Part shown: positions 4,259 to 63,449 of the stretch, piece after piece
Layout: each line of letters starts with the position of its first letter
How positions within the stretch are numbered: position 1 is the stretch's first letter
IMG/VR virus record: IMGVR_UViG_3300020810_001175
Location: 20,280-84,279 of that record
From: a virus
DNA length: 64,000 nt
Direction: 5' to 3' (one strand)
Notes under the pieces: generated by a model
Databases searched by the model: none
Told to the model about the DNA's origin: nothing
What the model saw: only the letters and a program-made list of their open reading frames with translations
Translations under genes and position numbers: made by a program

Positions 4259-5686
4259 CTATTGAATCTTCCAGGTGCCTTTTCGATACTCGCCTTCGAA
4301 TGATAATAACCATTCTGTACCATTCCATTTGTACTGCACACCGGTATTTAAATTGGTAATATATTTGATACTGAAATTACTTGCTGTTGCTGGATTGGCA
4401 CTGGCATCAAAAATAACCTGCCAATTTGTTCCATTCCATTCAATAATATCATTTTCGCCTGCCACTAAATCGATATTGCTGTCGCCTTTCCAAGCATCTG
4501 CTCCGTCGACGTTATCAGCACTTCCAATGCCTTTCAATAATAATAATCTTTTACCAGTTTGCTTAACACTTGATGGATCAAACTTTGTAGGATCCACTAT
4601 AAAATCAACTGATCCACTTGTTGTACCTGGGCCTACAATCACCGTGTCTGTGGGTAATGTATCTTCATCCCAGTCTATTAATAGTTGATAAGGATTGCTT
4701 TCGTTGATAGCAACTGTGCCCACTACTTGAGCATCTATACCTTCTCTGTTGAGATAAATTTTACTCAATCCATTTTTATAATTAGGTATTGTGTCGACAT
4801 TGCCATTCCATACTAAACCACCTATTACACCTTTGGTTACTATTTGTGCCACACTGCCTAACACATAGATGTCATAATTAATTCCTGTTGTGCCTAATAC
4901 AGCATCAGTGTCTTTTCTAACAGCATTACCTTTGTCATCTAATTTAATACTGTTTTCATAACCGTCTTGATATGCTTTTAATTCTGGCATTGTTTGACTT
5001 AGATCAATATTGCCAGATTGTTCATTGAATATACTTGTGATTATATGAGTAATAACTCCAAGTTTCTTAACCTTTGTAGGAGGTGAAATATATATTGGAG
5101 TTGTAAATCCTAATGTAGCAACATCAACTTCTGTTTCAGTACCTAGTGGAATAGTTCTAGAAGAAAAATTAATATTTGCTAATTCGACCACACTTAAACT
5201 CGTCCAATCCACATAGTTGTCTGTGGTTTGTATTTCTAATGATGGATTAAACAACATCATTATTTGTTCCATTATTTGTAATTTTTGTTCAGTATTTGAT
5301 GTCCAAATATCCACATTTAATGTCAGTGTGTATGGTGTAGGCATTAAACGTTCCACAGTAACATTTTTGCCTTGTGTATTTAGATATTCATTATTGTTAC
5401 TGTCGTATGCTCTTTCTCTGATATGAATTTTACTTACAAAACTAGCATCAGACAAACGAGTTCTATCCATTTCTAAATTCGTAACATATACTCCCATTCT
5501 TGGTACTGAAGGCAGTTTGTTTTCTGAATTGTCTCTTATGATGTGTCCAACCTGTCTAGAAATATCACCATACATAACAGGTATTGTTTTTAAATTACCA
5601 CTACCATCTTTGTATGAAAAATTACTCATCAGTCTAATAATTTGAGTAATATATCTTCTAATCTGTCCGTCGTAGAAAAACTGCAT
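4259..5686 (-). CDS. gp15: Tail sheath stabiliser/terminator (T4 gp15-like) with C-terminal extension
   Basis: MQFFYDGQIRRY...PTPYTL...QKLQIMEQI..LFNPSLEIQ; position next to the neck genes. Confidence 0.75.
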   Translation of the reverse strand: MQFFYDGQIRRYITQIIRLMSNFSYKDGSGNLKTIPVMYGDISRQVGHIIRDNSENKLPSVPRMGVYVTNLEMDRTRLSDASFVSKIHIRERAYDSNNNEYLNTQGKNVTVERLMPTPYTLTLNVDIWTSNTEQKLQIMEQIMMLFNPSLEIQTTDNYVDWTSLSVVELANINFSSRTIPLGTETEVDVATLGFTTPIYISPPTKVKKLGVITHIITSIFNEQSGNIDLSQTMPELKAYQDGYENSIKLDDKGNAVRKDTDAVLGTTGINYDIYVLGSVAQIVTKGVIGGLVWNGNVDTIPNYKNGLSKIYLNREGIDAQVVGTVAINESNPYQLLIDWDEDTLPTDTVIVGPGTTSGSVDFIVDPTKFDPSSVKQTGKRLLLLKGIGSADNVDGADAWKGDSNIDLVAGENDIIEWNGTNWQVIFDASANPATASNFSIKYITNLNTGVQYKWNGTEWLLSFEGEYRKGTWKIQ

Positions 5687-6850: not shown

Positions 6851-6870
6851 TATTTATCGGACGATAAATA
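6851..6870. promoter_or_regulatory. Back-to-back T4-type late promoters (GATAAATA on each strand)
   Basis: TATTTATC-GGAC-GATAAATA between the divergent gp14 and gp13 genes. Confidence 0.75.
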
Positions 6871-6887
6871 TGTATAAGGAAAACTGT

Positions 6888-7646
6888 ATGAGCGATTTGA
6901 CCACACAAAAGCAAGAGATATTTGATTACGTATACACCAGCCTAGGCGGTGGTATGGTCGATGTAGAACTGGATCCAGCACACTACGAAACAGCATTGCA
7001 AGACGCTTTGGATAGATTTAGACAGAGATCAGACAATTCAGTAGAAGAAAGTTATATGTTTTTGCCACTGATATTGGATCAAAATGACTATATCTTGCCA
7101 AATGAAGTTATAGAAGTAAGACAAATTTTTAGAAGATCAATTGGATCACGTTCTGGAGGTGGTCAAGGTGGTACAGTTTTTGAACCGTTCAATCTTGCGT
7201 ACACAAACACTTATCTATTAGCCAGTTCAAATATGGGTGGAGTTGCAACGTATAATATGTTTGCTCAACATCAGGAATTAGTAGGACGTATGTTTGGATC
7301 CTTCATTGAATTCAAATGGAATCCAACCACTCACAAATTAACAATTCTTCAAAGACCAAGAGCAGGCGAAGAAGTACTGTTAGAGTGCTATAATTACAGA
7401 CCAGATTCAGAACTACTTAAAGATTATTTGGCAAAAAAATGGTTAAAAGATTACACTTTGGCAAAATCTAAATTTATGTTAGGCGAAGCCAGAAGCAAAT
7501 TTAATACCATAGCAGGTCCACAAGGTGGTACTTCACTAAACGGTGACGCTCTTAAACAAGAAGCTCAAGCAGAAATGGAACGTTTAGAATTGGAAGTGAA
7601 AACACAAACTAGTGGTGGTGTTGGATATTCCTTCACAATTGGTTAA
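6888..7646 (+). CDS. gp13: Neck protein (T4 gp13-like)
   Basis: LGGGMVDVELD, WLKDYTLA, LGEARSKF..IAGPQGG..LNG; SD AAGGA before ATG 6888. Confidence 0.8.
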   Translation: MSDLTTQKQEIFDYVYTSLGGGMVDVELDPAHYETALQDALDRFRQRSDNSVEESYMFLPLILDQNDYILPNEVIEVRQIFRRSIGSRSGGGQGGTVFEPFNLAYTNTYLLASSNMGGVATYNMFAQHQELVGRMFGSFIEFKWNPTTHKLTILQRPRAGEEVLLECYNYRPDSELLKDYLAKKWLKDYTLAKSKFMLGEARSKFNTIAGPQGGTSLNGDALKQEAQAEMERLELEVKTQTSGGVGYSFTIG

Positions 7647-17941: not shown

Positions 17942-19525
17942 ATGAGTAATAAAAGTTTAGATGGTGTTCTTACCAAAAAAGCACACCAACGAGAAAAATT
18001 CACAGAAGAACAAATAGCAGACTTGGCGGATTGTTCAGACGCTAAGAGTGGTTTTGAATATTTTGCCAAAAAGTTTTTCTATATACAGCACCCTGTAAAA
18101 GGTAAATGTGTATTCGAGCCATTTGAATATCAAAGAAAATTGTTACACAGTTATCACGATTACAGATTTAATATCAATATGTTGCCTAGACAGAGTGGCA
18201 AGACCACCACTGCGGCTTGTTATCTACTTTGGTATGCAATGTTTCATCCAGATCAAACTATTTTAATTGCGGCACACAAATACACAGGTGCTCAAGAAAT
18301 TATGCAACGTATAAGATATGGATACGAACTGTGTCCTGATTATGTCAGAGCAGGTGTAACCAACTACAACAAAGGATCGATGGAATTTGAAAATGGCTCA
18401 CGTATTGTATCAGCAACCACAACAGGTAACACTGGTAGAGGTATGTCTATTTCATTATTATACTGTGATGAGTTTGCGTTTGTTAATCCGGGCATAGCAC
18501 AAGAATTCTGGACTTCAATATCTCCAACACTGGCAACAGGAGGTAGAGCAATTATAACATCGACACCTAACTCAGACGAAGATGTGTTTGCTACCATATG
18601 GAGAGAAAGTCAAAATAAATTTGACGAACACGGCAACGAACAAGAATTGGGCATAAACGGATTTCATGGATACACAGCCAGTTGGGACGAACATCCTGAC
18701 AGAGATGAAGAATGGAAAAAACAAGAACTAGGGCGTATTGGCGAAGAAAGATTTAGACGTGAATATGGTTGTGAATTTTTAGTGTATGATGAAACACTGA
18801 TCAACAGTATTGTGTTAACCACATTAGAAGGTGCAGAACCAACATTGAACATGGGACAAACACGTTGGTATAAAAAATTAGATCCACACAGCACATACGT
18901 TGTTGCATTAGATCCTGCTATGGGTACCGGTGGAGACAATGCGGCAATTGAAGTTTTTGAATTGCCAAGTTACGAACAAGTTGCAGAATGGAAACACAAC
19001 ACAACTGCTATTCCTCAACAAGTAAGAATTTTAAGAGACATATGTAACTATATCAAAGAAGAAACAAAATCTACAGGTTCTAACATCTATTGGAGCGTGG
19101 AAAACAACACTATTGGTGAATCAGCATTGTTGGTTATAAATGATTTTGGAGAAGATTCAATACCAGGATTATTTGTATCAGAACCTATAAGAAAAGGACA
19201 TATTAGAAAGTTTAGAAAAGGATTTAACACCACACACAAAACAAAAATTAGTGCTTGTAGCAGACTAAAAAATATGATTGAAAAAAGCAAATTAAAGATA
19301 CACAGTAAACCTTTAATCAGCGAACTTAAATCTTTTATTGCTTCAGGATCATCATTCAAAGCAAAATCAGGTCAAACAGATGACTTGGTCAGTGCTACAC
19401 TATTGATAATGCGTATTATAAGTGTGTTAAAAGACTGGGATCCTAAAATATACACATCATTCAGTCAAGCAGACGAAGATACAGCAGATAAGGTAATGCC
19501 AATGCCTATCTTTGTAAGCCACTAG
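17942..19525 (+). CDS. gp17: Terminase large subunit
   Basis: PRQSGKTT Walker A, LLYCDEFAFV Walker B, ITSTPN motif III, ALDPAMG and DDLVSA nuclease motifs. Confidence 0.97.
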   Translation: MSNKSLDGVLTKKAHQREKFTEEQIADLADCSDAKSGFEYFAKKFFYIQHPVKGKCVFEPFEYQRKLLHSYHDYRFNINMLPRQSGKTTTAACYLLWYAMFHPDQTILIAAHKYTGAQEIMQRIRYGYELCPDYVRAGVTNYNKGSMEFENGSRIVSATTTGNTGRGMSISLLYCDEFAFVNPGIAQEFWTSISPTLATGGRAIITSTPNSDEDVFATIWRESQNKFDEHGNEQELGINGFHGYTASWDEHPDRDEEWKKQELGRIGEERFRREYGCEFLVYDETLINSIVLTTLEGAEPTLNMGQTRWYKKLDPHSTYVVALDPAMGTGGDNAAIEVFELPSYEQVAEWKHNTTAIPQQVRILRDICNYIKEETKSTGSNIYWSVENNTIGESALLVINDFGEDSIPGLFVSEPIRKGHIRKFRKGFNTTHKTKISACSRLKNMIEKSKLKIHSKPLISELKSFIASGSSFKAKSGQTDDLVSATLLIMRIISVLKDWDPKIYTSFSQADEDTADKVMPMPIFVSH

Positions 19526-19541
19526 ACGATAAATATACTAT

Positions 19542-21794
19542 ATGAACCTTAATACCATAGCAAAAGACCTTTTTAACAAGATCAGAGGACAATTTCCTCA
19601 GGTAACATTGGGTGATTCTCAGGGAAAAATGACCACAGAACCTACCCAAGCAAGATTTTTTGACTTTGATTTTAAAGAAGGTGGAAACACTTTAGGAAAG
19701 GTAAGTATTAGCATAAGTGAAGAAGATGGCATGGTCGTTATGCACAGCAAAGACTTTGTTGAGCAAACAGATGAGCCATTAAAACGTGGATGGTTTAATT
19801 TTCTCAAAGAATTGAGAGGTTTTGCCAAAGCAAGAGTGCTTGGATTTGATACAAGAGATATCACAAAAAGCAATCTTGAAAAAAGAGACTATGACTTTTT
19901 AGGAAAAGGAAAAGAGGTAGAAAAAGTGAGCGAATCAAATTTATACGGCACAACAAAAACAAGTTTTCAAACTGTGGGCGAAGCAAGATTAGTAATCAAA
20001 CATTCAGCACCAGTAAATCCAACAGTAGCAGGTGGACGCACACACAGAATAGAATCTCTTTTCATAGAAAACAAAGCAGGCGAAAGATTCAAGTATCCAA
20101 TGAAACATTTGAATGGTGCAAGAGCAATGGCTCGACACGTATCAGAAGGTGGAAATCCATTTGATGATTTTGGAAAACACATCACAGAGATGAGTTCAGA
20201 GTTGAATCAGTTGAGAAAATTCAAAACATACATGAACAGATCCAATGTGATGGCTGAAGGTTTAAAAAAGTATCAGTCAGTTGTGGATGAAAGAATAGAA
20301 GAAATTAAATCAAACTGTTTACGTTTACAAAAACAAACTGCTTATAAAGAATCATTTGAAAGTTTTAGCAAATCAGAATTAGCAGAAGTTCCAGAAGATG
20401 TTAAAAAAAGTTGGATTGATGAATTAACAATCAAAACATTCAATGAAGAATTACAAGATGTATTTCCTTACATCTACAAATTGGTTACAGAAAGAACAGC
20501 AATAGAAGAACTAGGACCTAACTCATTTGAAGCACACGGATATCAAGGTGGCGTAGAGCCAAGAACGTTAAGATACGATCTTGCAGGAGACTTTGATCAA
20601 GACAGAGGTGTAAGTGAAAAAGATTCTGAAGATATAAAAAATCTTTTAGCAAAGGCTGGCATTAATGCTGATGTTCAACCAGACGAATCAAGACACCAAG
20701 GTGTTGTGATACACACAGATGCATCACCAGATGATGTAGAACAAGTGTTGGGTGGTATGATTGAAACCATCGATAATTTCCATGAATTTGAATCAGCAAT
20801 GGAATCAATTGTGAGAGAAGACAATGGATTGTTTTCACAAGATGCTGATGAACAAGCAGAAGCATTAGAAAAATTAAACACACTGATGGCAAAACATTTT
20901 CCAGCAGGTGTAAATGGTACCAACGGTATTGAAAGTTTACAAGGCATAATTGATGACGAAGAATTAAATGACGAAATTCAAAAAGCGGCAAGCGAAGATT
21001 CAGACATCTGCATACGTCCAATGATTATGGACTATGTGGCACAAAAAGATCCTACACTGGTTTCAAAAATTAGCACAGGCGACATGAAGCAAGAAGACGA
21101 AGCAATCACATTTGAAGACATCAAACCTTATGTTTCTATGTACAAAGGTGAAGATGGCAAAATGGTGTATGATGTGTTAGACAAAGATGGAGAATCAGTA
21201 GAAAAATTTGCTGATGCCAAAGGAGCAATGGCATATTTGAAACAAAATTTCAACAAATTAAAAAATAAAGAAGTTCAAACAGAAAACGAAACAGATTACG
21301 AAGGCTCGTTTGAATACGAATTACCAGGTGATGATGGTGAAATGGCTTATGGTACAATTCATTACAAAGCCATCAACGGTGTAGTTGATCCAAACTCTTT
21401 GAGAGGTGAATACGAATATGATGGTAATCACAAAGTAGATGATGACTATGCTAATGAAGTGATTAAACCAGGTGGCCCAGAACACGAAGAAGCATTAAAA
21501 GCCGCTCAAGAAGATTATGATTACGAAGCAAGTCGTATGAAATCTAAATTTGGTATAGAAGATCAAGAAGAAAAATCATTCAAAGACAAAGAACAAACTG
21601 TGGATGAATTTGTGAAAAGTTTCTTTGACTACACATCAAATCAATTTCCAAAAGGCGAAACAGCAGTGCTAACATCAGTAGAAAAGAAATTTGGTGACAA
21701 TGCTGTATCAACTGCACAGGAAACAATTCAGAAGTTAATGGCAAACAAAGATCCCGAAATTGCCAAAATCAAAAAATTAGCAGGCGTTCAATAA
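19542..21794 (+). CDS. Large acidic hypothetical protein (probable virion/head protein)
   Basis: 750-aa ORF; GATAAATA 6 nt before ATG; GERFKYP..HLNGARAMARHV motif. Confidence 0.6.
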   Translation: MNLNTIAKDLFNKIRGQFPQVTLGDSQGKMTTEPTQARFFDFDFKEGGNTLGKVSISISEEDGMVVMHSKDFVEQTDEPLKRGWFNFLKELRGFAKARVLGFDTRDITKSNLEKRDYDFLGKGKEVEKVSESNLYGTTKTSFQTVGEARLVIKHSAPVNPTVAGGRTHRIESLFIENKAGERFKYPMKHLNGARAMARHVSEGGNPFDDFGKHITEMSSELNQLRKFKTYMNRSNVMAEGLKKYQSVVDERIEEIKSNCLRLQKQTAYKESFESFSKSELAEVPEDVKKSWIDELTIKTFNEELQDVFPYIYKLVTERTAIEELGPNSFEAHGYQGGVEPRTLRYDLAGDFDQDRGVSEKDSEDIKNLLAKAGINADVQPDESRHQGVVIHTDASPDDVEQVLGGMIETIDNFHEFESAMESIVREDNGLFSQDADEQAEALEKLNTLMAKHFPAGVNGTNGIESLQGIIDDEELNDEIQKAASEDSDICIRPMIMDYVAQKDPTLVSKISTGDMKQEDEAITFEDIKPYVSMYKGEDGKMVYDVLDKDGESVEKFADAKGAMAYLKQNFNKLKNKEVQTENETDYEGSFEYELPGDDGEMAYGTIHYKAINGVVDPNSLRGEYEYDGNHKVDDDYANEVIKPGGPEHEEALKAAQEDYDYEASRMKSKFGIEDQEEKSFKDKEQTVDEFVKSFFDYTSNQFPKGETAVLTSVEKKFGDNAVSTAQETIQKLMANKDPEIAKIKKLAGVQ

Positions 21795-53687: not shown

Positions 53688-53900
53688 TGTAAAATATTTA
53701 TAGACTGCGAAAACAACAGGTTGTAGGTATGGTTTTGATGCTGATAACCGCACATACATCAACACTGTGACTGGCCCGTGTATTGACGTCTATGACGCTT
53801 TAAAACACTGTTTTATGGTACTGTAGATGCCTATATGTTAGTGCAACAGCACCAGTCAAAATACTGCTGTTATCAACCAGGTCAAGATAAGTAATTTCAA

Positions 53901-57456: not shown

Positions 57457-57502
57457 CGTTCAGGCATCAGCCCGGAAGTAGGTTATACCGAAGGAACGCA
57501 CC
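57457..57502 (+). ncRNA. Glutamine riboswitch (glnA RNA motif)
   Basis: P1 CGTTC/GAACG, P2 GGC-ATCA-GCC, GGAAGTA junction, P3 GGT-TAT-ACC, GAAG; followed by SD AAGGAGG and ATG. Confidence 0.8.
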
Positions 57503-57524
57503 TAACTTTAACAAGGAGGGTGAT

Positions 57525-57719
57525 ATGAATAGATTCAGTCATCTACTTAAAAAATACACAGAAAATAGTGTGCTAGCCAAAAAGGCAATGACGCTGTTTA
57601 GTGCTAGAAAAGAAGTAGATATCAATGCCAATGGCACACAAGGATACGTGGTAAAACACGGTCCTAATGCAGGCAAGGCATTGGCACACAGAGCAGTCAA
57701 ATCTACAAATAATTGGTAA
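57525..57719 (+). CDS. 64-aa basic protein downstream of the glutamine riboswitch
   Basis: SD AAGGAGG at 57513; MNRFSHLLKKY...KSTNNW. Confidence 0.75.
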   Translation: MNRFSHLLKKYTENSVLAKKAMTLFSARKEVDINANGTQGYVVKHGPNAGKALAHRAVKSTNNW

Positions 57720-57983
57720 TTATTTTTTAGTAAACAAAAAAGACCTGCTGGCGGAACTGTATCTAAAATTCAAGTTTCGCCAGTGCGGTTCACTCCAAAT
57801 TGTTTTTTCCCAATGTCTACAAGCCTGATGTGTCCAGCGTTCTAAAGCCACTTTGATTTGATATCTATTGTGAGGCTGTTTGAGTGCTTCATCCATGAAT
57901 CGCACCAACTCCACATCTGAAAAGACGTCTTCTCCTTCTAGGGTGTGTCGGATGGTTTTTTTAGTGTGTCGAGTGGATCGCAT
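57720..57983 (-). CDS. Hypothetical protein
   Basis: 87-aa ORF with an upstream TAAATA. Confidence 0.5.
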   Translation of the reverse strand: MRSTRHTKKTIRHTLEGEDVFSDVELVRFMDEALKQPHNRYQIKVALERWTHQACRHWEKTIWSEPHWRNLNFRYSSASRSFLFTKK

Positions 57984-58019
57984 ACTAAAAGTATATTTAT
58001 TCAGCCGATAAATATTGTT

Positions 58020-59327
58020 ATGCGTTACAGAGAATTCAAAAAAACAATAACAGAGGCCACTATTGCCTCATCTACACCTTCCAGTATACCTACATACATT
58101 GCAAATTTAAATCAGTTATTATCAACTAATCAACCCATTCTAGCAGGTAAACAGGGAGAAATTAATTTTGTTCCTGATCCGAATCAAAAAGTCAACAGTA
58201 TCGCAGATGTGATTAAGGGTAAGATTGACAATAAACCTGCTGAAATACAAGTGAGCAAAGTTTTCAAAAGTGCCGATGTAAAAGGCAAAGCGGGGAGATC
58301 ATTCAATTTAGGTAATGCAACCGAAGGAATGTTTGCCACTGCTATCTATACAAGATTGATCACAGACAAAGATATTTCAATACAGGGTTTAAAATCTAGT
58401 TTGGCTAAATTACCGCCACACAATAAAAACGGTGTAACTGTTGGGCCTGCTTCAGTAAAAGATAGAAAAGGTATTGTAGATAAAATTCAATTGTTTATTA
58501 AATTAGATGTCAGCAGTTATGAAGGTATTAAGGATCCTCAATCTTTACAAAATTTAATTCCTCATCTACAATCAATTGTAAATTATGTAAACAATGAAGA
58601 AATAAAAACACTGACCGCAGAATTTAAAAATAATGGCACAGTTGATTCTGTAAAAGTAATATCCGATGGAGTTACAGATGCTAAAAGTTCTAAAGTAGAT
58701 GTTGAAGTAGTTTATCTCAACGACAAAGGTGAAAGAAAAGTTGTTAGATATGAAAGATCAGTTAAAACCGGAGGAGTAAAACAGTTTGGTCAAGTCACAG
58801 CCGGAGGAGCCAAGCCTGAAGATGATACAGGCAAAGGTATAACACGAACAGAACGATATGATTTACAAGAACAGTTTTGGGACGATTTTGAAATTGATAT
58901 TTCCGCTTCGCAGGATGACTTTGAAGATTGGCCAGATTTTGTTGAAGCATATGATTTTACATACGCTGAAGCGGCTAAACAATTAAATGCTAAACTACAA
59001 GGTGATAAAAAAGAAAAACAAACTGTAAAAAATATTTTTGACGTGATTAAGAAACATGGGTTCGGAGATAGACCTAATGCTAAAACTGTAGACTTTGGAC
59101 CGAAAGGTTACAAAATTTTAGATTATAAAAAACTAGATGACTTCATTGAGAAAACAGATTTATCAGCAAAATTTATAAAAGAACAAAAGAGACCAGGAGT
59201 CGTAATACAAGATCAAAACGGAAAAGATTTTGTGATAATAAGATTGTACAAAGGTGAAACCAAAATGACCAACATGATAGAACGTGGTCCGGCAATGGAA
59301 CAAATAGTAAAAGTAAAAGAAGGTTAA
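58020..59327 (+). CDS. Hypothetical (probable internal head) protein
   Basis: GATAAATA 5 nt before ATG; MRYREFKKTITEA N-terminus. Confidence 0.6.
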   Translation: MRYREFKKTITEATIASSTPSSIPTYIANLNQLLSTNQPILAGKQGEINFVPDPNQKVNSIADVIKGKIDNKPAEIQVSKVFKSADVKGKAGRSFNLGNATEGMFATAIYTRLITDKDISIQGLKSSLAKLPPHNKNGVTVGPASVKDRKGIVDKIQLFIKLDVSSYEGIKDPQSLQNLIPHLQSIVNYVNNEEIKTLTAEFKNNGTVDSVKVISDGVTDAKSSKVDVEVVYLNDKGERKVVRYERSVKTGGVKQFGQVTAGGAKPEDDTGKGITRTERYDLQEQFWDDFEIDISASQDDFEDWPDFVEAYDFTYAEAAKQLNAKLQGDKKEKQTVKNIFDVIKKHGFGDRPNAKTVDFGPKGYKILDYKKLDDFIEKTDLSAKFIKEQKRPGVVIQDQNGKDFVIIRLYKGETKMTNMIERGPAMEQIVKVKEG

Positions 59328-59328
59328 T

Positions 59329-59688
59329 ATGAATCCAGTAGAATTGATAAAAAAGATATTACAGGCACTTGATCAACAAGAGCAAGAAAAAGATCTGCCC
59401 AATGCCAACAGAATGAAACAAATAGATGATGTGAATCAAAAGACCATCACACAGTATTCCAACTCTCCAGATGAAAGATATTCCACCGTGGACAAGGTCA
59501 CAACCAAAGCAGGAGGCGGTGCCAACTATCCAAAACATCCAGCAGACATCAGAGGTGAACATCCATCACAGTACCCTGAAACACGCAAAACTTTTAGAGA
59601 CTACTACGCTGATGTGGTGTCACAAAGACAAACATCACATGATGCAATGATAGATCAAATGAACACCATGAACAAGGAGACCGAATAA
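59329..59688 (+). CDS. Hypothetical protein
   Basis: YSNSPDERY...AGGG..PKHPADIR motif. Confidence 0.55.
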   Translation: MNPVELIKKILQALDQQEQEKDLPNANRMKQIDDVNQKTITQYSNSPDERYSTVDKVTTKAGGGANYPKHPADIRGEHPSQYPETRKTFRDYYADVVSQRQTSHDAMIDQMNTMNKETE

Positions 59689-60869
59689 TGGCAACTGTAA
59701 AATATAGAGGATTGAGTGGTACCAGAGTGGAATTGACTGTGAACACCACAGACACTCTAACCACAATAACCAATGCGGCAATTGCCGATGAAGGTTTGAA
59801 TGCCAACTACTATGCTGACTTCTTTTTGTTGAGAGACAACTCAGTATTGTTATCAAACAGCGGCGCACAAACTTATGCTCAATTGAATTTGACTGCTGAT
59901 GATGAATTGGTGGCTGTGTTGGATGACGATCCTGCCACGTACACCAAACAGGAACGTCAGGTTAGAAAATTAGAAATTGCCAGCATACAGCGTGAAGATG
60001 ATGGTTATGCCAATCATGTTTATGATTTGACCTCACTGCCAGATACCTACAACGGCAATGTACCAGGAGCAGATGACAATCCCAACACAGGCGGATTGTT
60101 GCCAAAACGTCCTTGGATAGAAGTGGGTGCTATTGCGGCGCCGACATCAATTGCAGAAGCAGTTGATGGTGGCTCACTGCCGGACCTACAGGTTTGGTAT
60201 GATGGCAGTGATCCTACAACTATTCAAAATGCTGGAGTTGATGAAGAAGATATAGAACAATGGAATGACAAATCTAATTTTGCTCACAACGCTAATCCTG
60301 TTGGAGGAGCATCTGCGAAACCGTTGTATGAAGCCAGCGATTTAAAAAATAACAATGAGTATGTTAAGTTCGACGGCAACGACATTCTCAGTGTTAATCC
60401 TTTTACACAACTCGACGAAGCAACTGGATGGAGTATGTTTATTGTTGCCAATGCTACAGACATCAGTGCCAACGGTGGATTGTGTGCTACAAACACAGGC
60501 GACTTGAAGATAAGAATTGACGCAGATGGTAGCACCAGTTTTAGAAGCACAAGCAACAACTATGCCTACTTTGGAACAGGCACTATTACAGATAACACTT
60601 GGCATATATGGAGTTTGATATATGATGGCACCGCATCAGGAAACGCAAGGCTGATTGGTAGGTTGGACAAGACCAGTGCTACACTTTACACAGGCACCCA
60701 ACCAGCACAATTAAGCACAGGAAGTGATATAATGTATCTTGGTAGCACCAACGAAGCAGGCTACGACCTAACAGGCTATATAGGTGAAGTTATTATGTTT
60801 AACAGAACACTTACAGCAACAGAATACGGCAACGTAGAAAACTATCTAAGCAACAAGTGGGGCTTGTAA
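59688..60869 (+). CDS. Putative virion protein: ubiquitin-like N-terminal domain plus LamG/ConA-like C-terminal domain
   Basis: N-terminal ~78 aa align with ubiquitin; C-terminal LQVWYDGSD...WNDKS...GYIGEVIMFNRTLT...ENYLSNKWG. Confidence 0.65.
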   Translation: MATVKYRGLSGTRVELTVNTTDTLTTITNAAIADEGLNANYYADFFLLRDNSVLLSNSGAQTYAQLNLTADDELVAVLDDDPATYTKQERQVRKLEIASIQREDDGYANHVYDLTSLPDTYNGNVPGADDNPNTGGLLPKRPWIEVGAIAAPTSIAEAVDGGSLPDLQVWYDGSDPTTIQNAGVDEEDIEQWNDKSNFAHNANPVGGASAKPLYEASDLKNNNEYVKFDGNDILSVNPFTQLDEATGWSMFIVANATDISANGGLCATNTGDLKIRIDADGSTSFRSTSNNYAYFGTGTITDNTWHIWSLIYDGTASGNARLIGRLDKTSATLYTGTQPAQLSTGSDIMYLGSTNEAGYDLTGYIGEVIMFNRTLTATEYGNVENYLSNKWGL

Positions 60870-60872
60870 TAA

Positions 60873-61631
60873 ATGGCTAACCGTAAGCACTACAATCTAA
60901 AACAAATGGTAGTCGCAGGCTACTCAGATGATCACACATTTAATCACAAGTTTGGTGCTGTTCCAAGTTTAAGCATCAACACCATGGGTACAATCTGGGA
61001 CATACCTGACACACTTTATCCTTGGACAGCATTGGACACTCCAGCGATAGTAAATGTGGAACGCAACGATGCTGATGACACAGGATTGATTGTTACCATA
61101 CAAGGATTGGACAGTGATTGGAACTTTCAAGAAGAACAAATCACAATCACAGGCGCGGATCAAGTGGGCACCAAACTGTGGCGTAGAGTCAACAGAGCAT
61201 TTGTTACTTCAGGCACAGCCGTAGTGAATGTGGGCGACATTGACATTGAAGCAGGAGCCGCCGGTGGAACCACAGTTGCTCGTATCACAGCCGACCTTGG
61301 ACAGACACTGATGGCTGTTTATACCATACCAGCAGGATACATTGGATACTTGTATCAAGGAACCATGACCGTACAGGCTAACGCAGATGCTACAGGCTTT
61401 ATGTTTATTCGCAGAAACACAGTAGGCACAACTTTCCGTGTTGGACATACTTTTGAAGTTGGTGGCGGATCACAATATGATTACGAGTTTGCCTTTCCAC
61501 CACCAATACCAGAGAAAAGCGATATTGATGTGAGAGCCGCAGTTAGAAGTAACAATGCTAGGGTCACAGCCGCTTTTGATATCTTGCTTGTTGAGAACGA
61601 TCCCGAAGCACCTATTACTGACCTACTATAA
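60873..61631 (+). CDS. Putative virion structural protein
   Basis: KFG..., GLDSDW, RVNRAFV, GQTLMAVYTIPAG, EKSDIDVR; beta-rich. Confidence 0.55.
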   Translation: MANRKHYNLKQMVVAGYSDDHTFNHKFGAVPSLSINTMGTIWDIPDTLYPWTALDTPAIVNVERNDADDTGLIVTIQGLDSDWNFQEEQITITGADQVGTKLWRRVNRAFVTSGTAVVNVGDIDIEAGAAGGTTVARITADLGQTLMAVYTIPAGYIGYLYQGTMTVQANADATGFMFIRRNTVGTTFRVGHTFEVGGGSQYDYEFAFPPPIPEKSDIDVRAAVRSNNARVTAAFDILLVENDPEAPITDLL

Positions 61632-61652: not shown

Positions 61653-62396
61653 ATGTTGACTCCGATTGAGATAAAATTTTCAGCACAGAGCATCCTCAAC
61701 ACCCTGAAACACTGTCAATTGGAACAGGATCAGTTTGATGACATGAACAAACTGGACATCATGGAACCCACAGGCAATTTCTTCTATGATCCTTGGCAGT
61801 TGAAAGAATCTTTTCGCACACCAGAGTTGATTGCACTGTTTGATCAGTTGCCACCAGTGGGGCAGACCAAGATAGTGAGCATACCACCCGGCACAGCCTA
61901 TCAGGCTCATGCTGACATTGAAGACAGATATCACATCACTCTGCAAGGCAAACACAGTTACCTTATAGACCTAGAACACAATGAGATGCATTCAACAGAT
62001 GTGAATGATCAGTGCTATCTCATGGACACCACCTGTGTACACACAGCGGCAAACTTTGGAGATTGTGACAGAATACAGTTGGTGATCAGACTGCTGTTGA
62101 ATCGCAACAGATTGAACACACCTGTGAGAATCAGCATTCAACCCAAACTGTTGGACCAACCTCACAATCAAAGACTGTGGATGGATCAACACATCCTCAC
62201 ATGGTTGAACCTGGCCAACAAACGTGGCATCATGGCTCATTACAATCCCATGGGAGAAGACACACATTGGTGTTTTGATCTGGAGCAGGAGTGCGTGACA
62301 GAATTTGAACAGAGGGTGCGTGAATTGCCTTTTGAATGTGTAGTGGCTTGCGACAGTGTTGCACAACTGCCGCAAACCTCAACTCGAGTTGCCTAA
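61653..62396 (+). CDS. Aspartyl/asparaginyl beta-hydroxylase-like (cupin) protein
   Basis: YQAHADIEDRYHI, HTAANFG..RIQLV. Confidence 0.6.
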   Translation: MLTPIEIKFSAQSILNTLKHCQLEQDQFDDMNKLDIMEPTGNFFYDPWQLKESFRTPELIALFDQLPPVGQTKIVSIPPGTAYQAHADIEDRYHITLQGKHSYLIDLEHNEMHSTDVNDQCYLMDTTCVHTAANFGDCDRIQLVIRLLLNRNRLNTPVRISIQPKLLDQPHNQRLWMDQHILTWLNLANKRGIMAHYNPMGEDTHWCFDLEQECVTEFEQRVRELPFECVVACDSVAQLPQTSTRVA

Positions 62397-62682: not shown

Positions 62683-62825
62683 TACACACACCAAAAAAAA
62701 TTTAATCAAAAAAAATTTAATTGGGTACTTAACACCACCATGGGCCTACTTTTGAGCTGGTCCATTTGGTGTGTTAGGTTGGTTTGGTGTGAACAACACC
62801 TGTGGATAAGTTAAATACACACAGT

Positions 62826-63449
62826 ATGATGAATCCCAACGATATACCAGGCTGGATCAATCAAAGACATCAGGAAAGACTGATGGAAACACTGATCAAC
62901 CACAAACCTCAACGCATACTGGAGATCGGTTGTGGCTATGGCAGAAGCACAGTGACCATACTGAATCATATGCCTGATACTGCTGTGTTGCACACTGTGG
63001 ACACATATCGACATCTGGATCCACGCAAGTTTGCCAAAAAACATTTCAAAGGCTACAAACGCAGAGGCTGGGCAATGCCACCCGTACTGACCGAAAACAT
63101 TCATTTGATGCAACAGTTGGGACAGAGAGGCTTTTGGGAACACATCACAGCACAGCACCCACGCCGACAGTCAGTCACAGCACACGAAATGACCAGTGTG
63201 CAGTACATTCAGCAGTATCAGGATCGAGCATACGACATGGTGTATTTGGATGGTGATCACTCATATGCGGCTGTGAAAGCAGAGATCACACACTATGAAC
63301 AGACACCCATACTGTGCGGAGATGACTATGGACCAGCACATCCAGGAGTGATACAGGCAGTGGATGAACTGCGACTGAAGTATCCTGATAGAGCATGGCA
63401 ACCATCAGAACAGCACGTCAAGAGTGGTTATTGGGTGGTGCGAATCTAA
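62826..63449 (+). CDS. Class I SAM methyltransferase (Methyltransf_24-like)
   Basis: LEIGCGYGRST, VDT, YLDGDHSY, CGDDY. Confidence 0.85.
   Translation: MMNPNDIPGWINQRHQERLMETLINHKPQRILEIGCGYGRSTVTILNHMPDTAVLHTVDTYRHLDPRKFAKKHFKGYKRRGWAMPPVLTENIHLMQQLGQRGFWEHITAQHPRRQSVTAHEMTSVQYIQQYQDRAYDMVYLDGDHSYAAVKAEITHYEQTPILCGDDYGPAHPGVIQAVDELRLKYPDRAWQPSEQHVKSGYWVVRI

Follow-up and report, generated by a model that had tools for sequence, protein, structure and literature searches.

Ubiquitin-like folds connected with phages were previously known from two settings, the tail assembly protein I (TAPI) of lambda-type phages and the host-side Bil-type defence. TAPI of phages lambda and T1 is described as a ThiS/MoaD-like protein that ends in a conserved glycine and forms a pair with the JAB peptidase gpK, which combines JAB with NlpC/P60 (PMC1779556). 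BilA is a free host ubiquitin-like protein with an obligatory C-terminal glycine and with E1, E2, and deubiquitinase (DUB) partners (10.1101/2023.09.04.556158). Here, we describe a 393-amino acid (aa) protein encoded at 59688..60869 on the plus strand of a 64,000-nucleotide (nt) stretch of viral DNA (positions 20,280 to 84,279 of IMG/VR record IMGVR_UViG_3300020810_001175; hereafter, the window). The open reading frame (ORF) list and homolog searches delimit a gene whose product joins three modules: an N-terminal domain that very probably belongs to the ubiquitin family (Ubl), a short phage-specific core, and a C-terminal LamG/ConA-like domain. The 84,279-nt record is estimated to be ~24% complete and comes from an uncultured aquatic T4-like phage; gp13-like (6870-7646), gp15-like (4259-5686, minus strand), and gp17-like (17942-19525) ORFs are present in the window.

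The nearest phage precedent for this protein is lambda/T1 TAPI, and the nearest sequence family is ubiquitin proper together with the integral ubiquitin-like domains. TAPI (gpI) likewise has an N-terminal ubiquitin-like beta-grasp, a linker, and a C-terminal domain and is encoded in a structural/assembly gene cluster (PMC1779556). The domain described here differs in being ubiquitin-type, in lacking the glycine, in having no JAB found nearby, and in belonging to T4-like phages. A Pfam scan of the window protein at E ≤ 1 returned LamG_3 only, with no TAPI family, and none is listed among 29 relatives; we take Lambda_tail_I to be the name of the TAPI model in Pfam. With BilA, the shared feature is a ubiquitin-like fold at the interface between phage tail and host, whereas the free state, the glycine, and the E1/E2/DUB partners of BilA were not found here. 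The likeness to ubiquitin and the integral ubiquitin-like domains (PF00240; RAD23, ubiquilin, and the ubiquitin-eL40/eS31 fusions) extends to sequence family by profile, to the predicted fold of a relative, and to the N-terminal position, and a conjugatable diglycine is lacking both here and in the integral domains. In contrast to these proteins, the present domain is phage encoded and fused to a phage core of ~60 aa and to lectin-type domains, and the window copy is too diverged to be recognized by Pfam alone.

The assignment of residues 1-78 (59688..59921, plus strand) to the ubiquitin-family beta-grasp, which we consider very probable although the window protein by itself fails Pfam, draws on hhalign comparisons, a PDB profile search, and the Atlas model of a relative. 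An earlier note on this DNA had aligned the N-terminus with ubiquitin by eye; the ORF list gives the same N-terminal sequence, and at the level of profiles the likeness turned out to be far beyond chance. An alignment of 21 N-terminal modules (A2, from which the relatives P0080, P0094, and P0096 were left out because each matches Pfam ubiquitin by itself) scored 47.1 against ubiquitin in hhalign, as compared with 9.6 ± 1.8 for 100 column shuffles (maximum score 17.9, maximum probability 7.7) and 14.2 for the reversed alignment. Across 61 ubiquitin units with <85% mutual identity, the probability was 95.7 to 96.1 (P of 3e-9 to 9e-9) over 68 to 69 columns that correspond to window residues 2-76. 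The close sub-clade of the window protein (eight sequences) gave a probability of 94.1 (P = 1.3e-7, 71 columns), and the single window sequence gave 75 (P = 2.5e-5).

Database searches with the A2 profile point in the same direction. In the PDB, 202 sequences matched at E ≤ 10, and among the best 60 of these, 59 are ubiquitin, ubiquitin-like, or ubiquitin-derived, and one is an aminopeptidase. A search of 1.84 billion representative proteins yielded 212 matches at E ≤ 0.001; the 147 that were classified among the best 150 comprise 75 family members and 72 polyubiquitin-like repeats. Individual relatives are recognized by Pfam as well, with ubiquitin matches in three and Rad60-SLD matches in two sequences of the 29-sequence family alignment. 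P0080 reaches 32.1 bits against the ubiquitin gathering cut-off of 25.4, with its residues 10-73 covering model positions 5-66 of 72, and P0096 reaches 29.6 bits at the corresponding N-terminal position; P0094 (18.5 bits) and P0036 (13.6 bits) stay below the cut-off. A further clade of N-terminal modules (A6, 10 sequences), which is closer to ubiquitin, aligns with A2 at a probability of 96.8 (P = 2.4e-10, 71 columns) and matches single-copy PDB ubiquitin with E-values of 4e-8 to 1e-6 over ubiquitin residues 2-68. Its best single-domain PDB match is 6kna_A, "Viral ubiquitin." This protein is likewise a virus-encoded member of the ubiquitin family; unlike the integral phage domain, however, we take it to be a free ubiquitin that can be conjugated and that comes from a virus infecting eukaryotes. 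The phage Ubl is closest to eukaryote-type ubiquitin. The structure comparison that the note had proposed as a check was made on P0086, a member of A2, and supports a beta-grasp: residues 1-85 of its Atlas model superpose with TM scores of 0.68 to 0.71 (74 to 79 residues aligned) on the ubiquilin (UBQLN), RAD23, polyubiquitin, eL40-fusion, and HUB1 clusters; the only other clusters matched are viral ones of the family itself.

Conjugatable modifiers, such as ubiquitin, NEDD8, ISG15, BilA, and the ThiS/MoaD type, end their beta-grasp in a glycine or diglycine that is free or becomes exposed by processing, and this domain has neither. The window sequence runs on past the Ubl as ...VAVLDDDPATYTK... 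with no glycine after the domain, and residues 79-86 are DDDPATYT, in agreement with the earlier reading that no GG follows directly. Among 165 nonredundant Ubl-plus-core proteins, four have a GG at some position in the stretch that separates Ubl and core, and none of 20 short fragment-like representatives ends in GG. Because it has no C-terminal glycine, the Ubl would be neither conjugated nor released as a tag. The NPNTGG motif (residues 131-136; 60078..60095, plus strand) does precede LamG_3 (residues 233-379), as had been noted, but it does not mark the terminus of the Ubl: it sits 53 residues past the end of the Ubl, and its position and comparison of the cores place it within the core. 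The GG is kept in 157 of 217 cores with RPW, the first glycine being often replaced by aspartate (NTDGL and NPDGL), and the motif is equally present in cores without a Ubl. NPNTGG is an element of the core, not a ubiquitin-type C-terminus.

Conjugation machinery was not detected around the gene either. No E1, E2, or JAB was found among the neighboring genes by Pfam, NCBIfam, or PADLOC; PADLOC gave no match for six proteins of the gene block, and NCBIfam gave no defence-Ubl match among the block proteins, the presence of Bil models in these two libraries not having been checked. A search of the 84-kb record for Prok-JAB was negative as well, which is weak evidence in a record of such low completeness. 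The only NCBIfam match in the block was of the 119-aa protein encoded directly upstream, to "desampylase" (E = 0.0095, 15.8 bits against a cut-off of 130). Desampylases are JAB enzymes, and this call was rejected, because the 25-sequence family alignment lacks the HxH...S..D (JAMM) motif and the histidine of its KHP peptide is not invariant.

The module that defines the family is the core, at residues 86-143 (59943..60116, plus strand). In the 29-sequence alignment, it follows the pattern TK..RQ..KLEIA..KR ... YD.T.LPDTYNGN.PGADDNPNTGGL..RPW, with invariant columns at R90, Q91, L95, R102, D113, L117, P118, Y121, N131, N133, L137, and P142. Its identity to the window sequence averages 68% (minimum 52%), compared with 41% (minimum 17%) for the Ubl and a mean of 30% for the C-terminal domain, so that on alignment evidence this stretch of ~60 residues is the best conserved part of the protein. 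Stand-alone cores exist as proteins of ~75 aa, and 60 of 225 core-bearing proteins have no Ubl, with MAANGIS as their typical start. Residues 1-150 retrieve 146 homologs at E ≤ 0.01, and relatives of the protein in viral contigs number 187. The core has no relative in Pfam, a PDB search with the core alignment (A5) gave a best E-value of 0.69, and window residues 1-160 have no family match in Pfam and PHROG scans.

The C-terminal region (residues ~160-393) contains the LamG_3/ConA-like lectin-fold domain at residues 233-379 (60384..60824, plus strand), which the note had also predicted. The match to PF13385 (E = 9.1e-9, 36.1 bits against a cut-off of 27.6) is accompanied by one to PHROG 10356 (E = 8e-15), and a PDB search with the C-terminal 244 aa had a best E-value of 0.67. 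The PHROG label "virion structural protein" covers residues 159-393 only and derives entirely from the LamG part. Among 29 family members, the C-terminal domain is LamG_3 in 16, PA14 plus GLEYA in 10, and ILEI in one, and at some loci Ig-like or other bodies lie C-terminal of the core. The survey of homolog architectures that had been suggested found Ubl, core, and exchangeable C-terminal domains as separate modules. Among the matches listed, the Ubl starts at residue 5 or earlier in 73 of 75 family-type representatives, and the core is found in 53 of the 55 with a length of 130 aa or more; 23 have two modules, with a C-terminus no more than 12 residues from RPW, and 26 have three. Both the Ubl and the C-terminal domains (LamG, PA14/GLEYA, and ILEI) thus appear, from these architectures, to be optional and swappable. 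As 23 representatives comprise nothing beyond Ubl and core, the Ubl can be displayed without any other domain. In P0183 (358 aa), an N-terminal Ubl is followed by tandem repeats that look fibre-like by eye, with no core; the Ubl can therefore sit on another type of putative structural protein.

The gene is part of a translationally coupled block. First in this block is a 460-aa gene (57945..59327, plus strand; PHROG 3560), whose stop lies 1 nt before the ATG of the 119-aa gene (59329..59688, plus strand); the latter overlaps the 393-aa gene in TAATG, and a 252-aa gene (60873..61631, plus strand) starts 3 nt past the stop codon of the 393-aa gene. Across 80 viral-contig loci (L001-L080), the core gene is immediately preceded by a gene of the 119-aa family (~100 aa) in 47 and immediately followed (~4 nt) by a member of one single-linkage cluster in 52. 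Members of the upstream family (~75-130 aa; alignment A4) begin with a helix (MRATDIIR.VLD.ID), contain a linker that is acidic and of low complexity, and share the conserved peptide Y.N.PNE...D.VT..AGGG.NGPKHP.DIR; no Pfam or PADLOC relative was found, and the best PDB E-value was 0.33. Many of the downstream partners have the body of PHROG 1645 (E = 2e-140), a family labeled "virion structural protein"; 165 cyanophage records contain it under this annotation. The cassette adjoins gp13 in L053-L057 and gp17 in L048 and L050. Cyanophage Syn33 has neither a core gene nor an upstream-family gene; its PHROG 1645 gene is situated between gp16 and gp17.

The reading that we favor, with a probability of roughly 0.6, is that this is a three-module late or structural protein in which the core docks and the Ubl is an accessory, not a decoy. 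The core (~86-143) would serve as the docking adaptor, binding a conserved partner in the particle or in an intermediate of assembly, because it is a conserved short module with exchanged optional domains, encoded in a coupled, late-looking cassette near neck and packaging genes. A conserved plug-in part combined with exchanged globular domains is the design of phage surface and fibre proteins. The Ubl and the lectin-type domain would then be optional cargo of the core: the LamG/ConA-like region (~160-393) is probably a glycan-binding head, and the Ubl may be a compact protein-protein interaction module or a folding or solubility module for the short core. T4 Hoc, a modular phage surface protein with a conserved anchor and variable display domains, offers a functional analogy only; both combine a short conserved module with variable Ig- or lectin-type domains, but no sequence relation was found.

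Several observations weigh against this reading, beginning with the fold of the Ubl. The window protein alone has no match to PF00240 at E ≤ 1, and the fold model is that of its relative P0086. A single PDB ubiquitin scores ~15 bits (E of ~0.15) against A2, at profile positions 8-41, and the E-values of 1e-21 obtained on polyubiquitin merely sum nine copies. The ubiquitin units used in hhalign were cut from proteins that A2 itself had matched, with an aligned span that extends well beyond the selecting region 8-41. As for docking, the core and the neighboring proteins have no known relatives in Pfam or the PDB, which would have indicated a partner. It is gene context that points to a location in the virion, and the 80 loci surveyed are not independent samples. 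The window's own downstream gene belongs to PHROG 8198, which is by sequence unrelated to PHROG 1645.

The alternative that survives best, and that we nevertheless consider unlikely, is that the protein is not in the particle and that its place of action is the interior or surface of the infected cell, where it might be a lectin-type effector or, like TAPI, an assembly factor that is discarded. It is consistent with the transfer of the "virion structural protein" label from the LamG domain and with the position of the window cassette, which lies ~40 kb from gp13, gp15, and gp17 and beside oxygenase-like and methyltransferase genes. The family is absent among 50,697 GenBank phage records, and no cultured phage carries it. 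Against it stand the neighbors of the relatives, which are PHROG 1645 virion proteins, and the cassettes that at some loci lie in the gp13-gp17 region. Virion surface proteins, moreover, typically combine a conserved short module with lectin- or Ig-like C-terminal domains that can be exchanged, a design that this protein would share.

Slightly less probable is that the Ubl itself is the domain that docks onto the virion or a partner, with the core as a mere linker. Integral ubiquitin-like domains of eukaryotic proteins are interaction modules, and the upstream small gene is present with 26 of 35 Ubl-bearing ORFs as against 17 of 48 without a Ubl, although these loci are not independent; this weak association is the only hint of a partner. 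If the Ubl did the docking, however, it would be difficult to account for the 60 of 225 core-bearing proteins that lack it, for core-only proteins in the identical cassette position, for two divergent Ubl sub-types on one core, and for a Ubl that is less conserved than the core (41% versus 68%). The suggestion of a virion docking domain in the earlier note holds in part: the role suits the conserved core better than the Ubl, a dispensable module with lower conservation.

We also give little credence to the Ubl as a removable pro-domain or intramolecular chaperone, cleaved during maturation as proposed for lambda TAPI and the JAB of gpK or as in ubiquitin-ribosomal protein fusions. Its N-terminal placement resembles that of ubiquitin-fusion proteins, and in some sub-clades a single glycine stands directly before the core. 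Yet no glycine is conserved at the end of the domain, where the window clade has DDDPATY, and a GG is confined to the 4 of 165 members mentioned above; the missing JAB in the record counts weakly in the same direction, given its ~24% completeness, and the "desampylase" match of the upstream protein is noise with no JAMM motif.

That the Ubl is a decoy or inhibitor of Bil-type (E1/E2/JAB) host defences or a mimic of an already tagged tail protein, as would be the case if phages had captured a eukaryote-type ubiquitin as a fixed domain of a particle protein that jams or misleads Bil-type E1/E2/deubiquitinase enzymes, is very improbable: Bil systems do attach a Ubl to a phage tail-tip protein (10.1101/2023.09.04.556158), and a ubiquitin-type fold on a probable phage structural protein is a striking coincidence, but the strictly conserved C-terminal glycine that conjugation needs (10.1101/2023.09.04.556158) is absent here, the domain is like eukaryote-type ubiquitin, PADLOC and NCBIfam gave no match (with the above limit on Bil models), no JAB was found in the 84-kb record, the Ubl is always tethered N-terminally in one protein family and never free, and many relatives do without it.

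What is new here is an integral, nonconjugatable ubiquitin-family domain on a widespread modular phage family that has an undescribed putative adaptor module of ~60 residues. A literature search, in which supplementary domain tables lay outside the scope, found no description of a ubiquitin-type domain on a structural or adaptor protein of T4-like phages. The family bears on the spread of ubiquitin-family domains outside eukaryotes without conjugation machinery. If the core does dock as we propose, these proteins would amount to a natural plug-in system by which phage particles display domains and would provide a handle on variation in host range and adhesion among marine and freshwater phages.

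The downstream genes of the cassette are more heterogeneous than their position suggests. Two or more unrelated bodies, among them PHROG 1645 and PHROG 8198, follow a conserved N-terminal motif of 40 aa (NSTNY.HP.EPNLLNLHKAMEYN..G.P..R), and the window's 252-aa protein has the PHROG 8198 body (E = 5e-49) without this motif. Treating the downstream cluster as one virion-protein family was rejected, as it is a single-linkage chimera: the two bodies are linked only through intermediates with the 40-aa motif and compare at an hhalign probability of 0.1. The downstream family (A3) had 0 matches in the PDB, and the 252-aa protein had a best E-value of 0.84. A complex prediction of core residues 80-150 (A1) with the 252-aa downstream protein (A3) gave ipSAE values of 0.00 and 0.00 with an uncertain partner fold and low confidence in the core, and it counts neither for nor against binding.

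The T4 late-promoter octamer TATAAATA has a single match in the window (53695-53702, minus strand), which is not near the gene, as compared with an expectation of 6.4 ± 2.4 in shuffles; the late motif of this T4-like phage is probably a different one. A scan for sigma-70 promoters and terminators gave no signal above the level of shuffles. RNA-library contigs span the operon (30 of 30 bins in X1-X3 and 28 of 30 bins in X5), but they are long and of flat depth, with possible DNA carry-over, and we neither count them as expression nor use them to rank genes. The summed contig depth in X5 is 45.6 at the riboswitch/small-ORF region 57481-57707, 115 to 177 at 60886-61566 in the 252-aa gene, and 0 to 10 in the rest of the block.

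Further genes accompany the cassette. Directly downstream of it in the window lies an Asp/Asn beta-hydroxylase-like gene (61653-62396, plus strand; Pfam PF05118, E = 1.8e-7), followed by a Methyltransf_24/CmcI-like methyltransferase gene (62802-63449, plus strand; E = 6e-12). These oxygenase-like and methyltransferase genes possibly encode protein- or sugar-modifying enzymes. At 31 of the 80 loci, the opposite strand ~0.4 kb upstream carries an aminolevulinate/8-amino-7-oxononanoate synthase-like gene of ~400 aa, named by eye from one sequence. A cluster of ~146-aa genes is represented at 25 of the 80 loci, and at 24 loci, an ORF matches the "endonuclease" gene of Syn33 (PF00565 according to its record).

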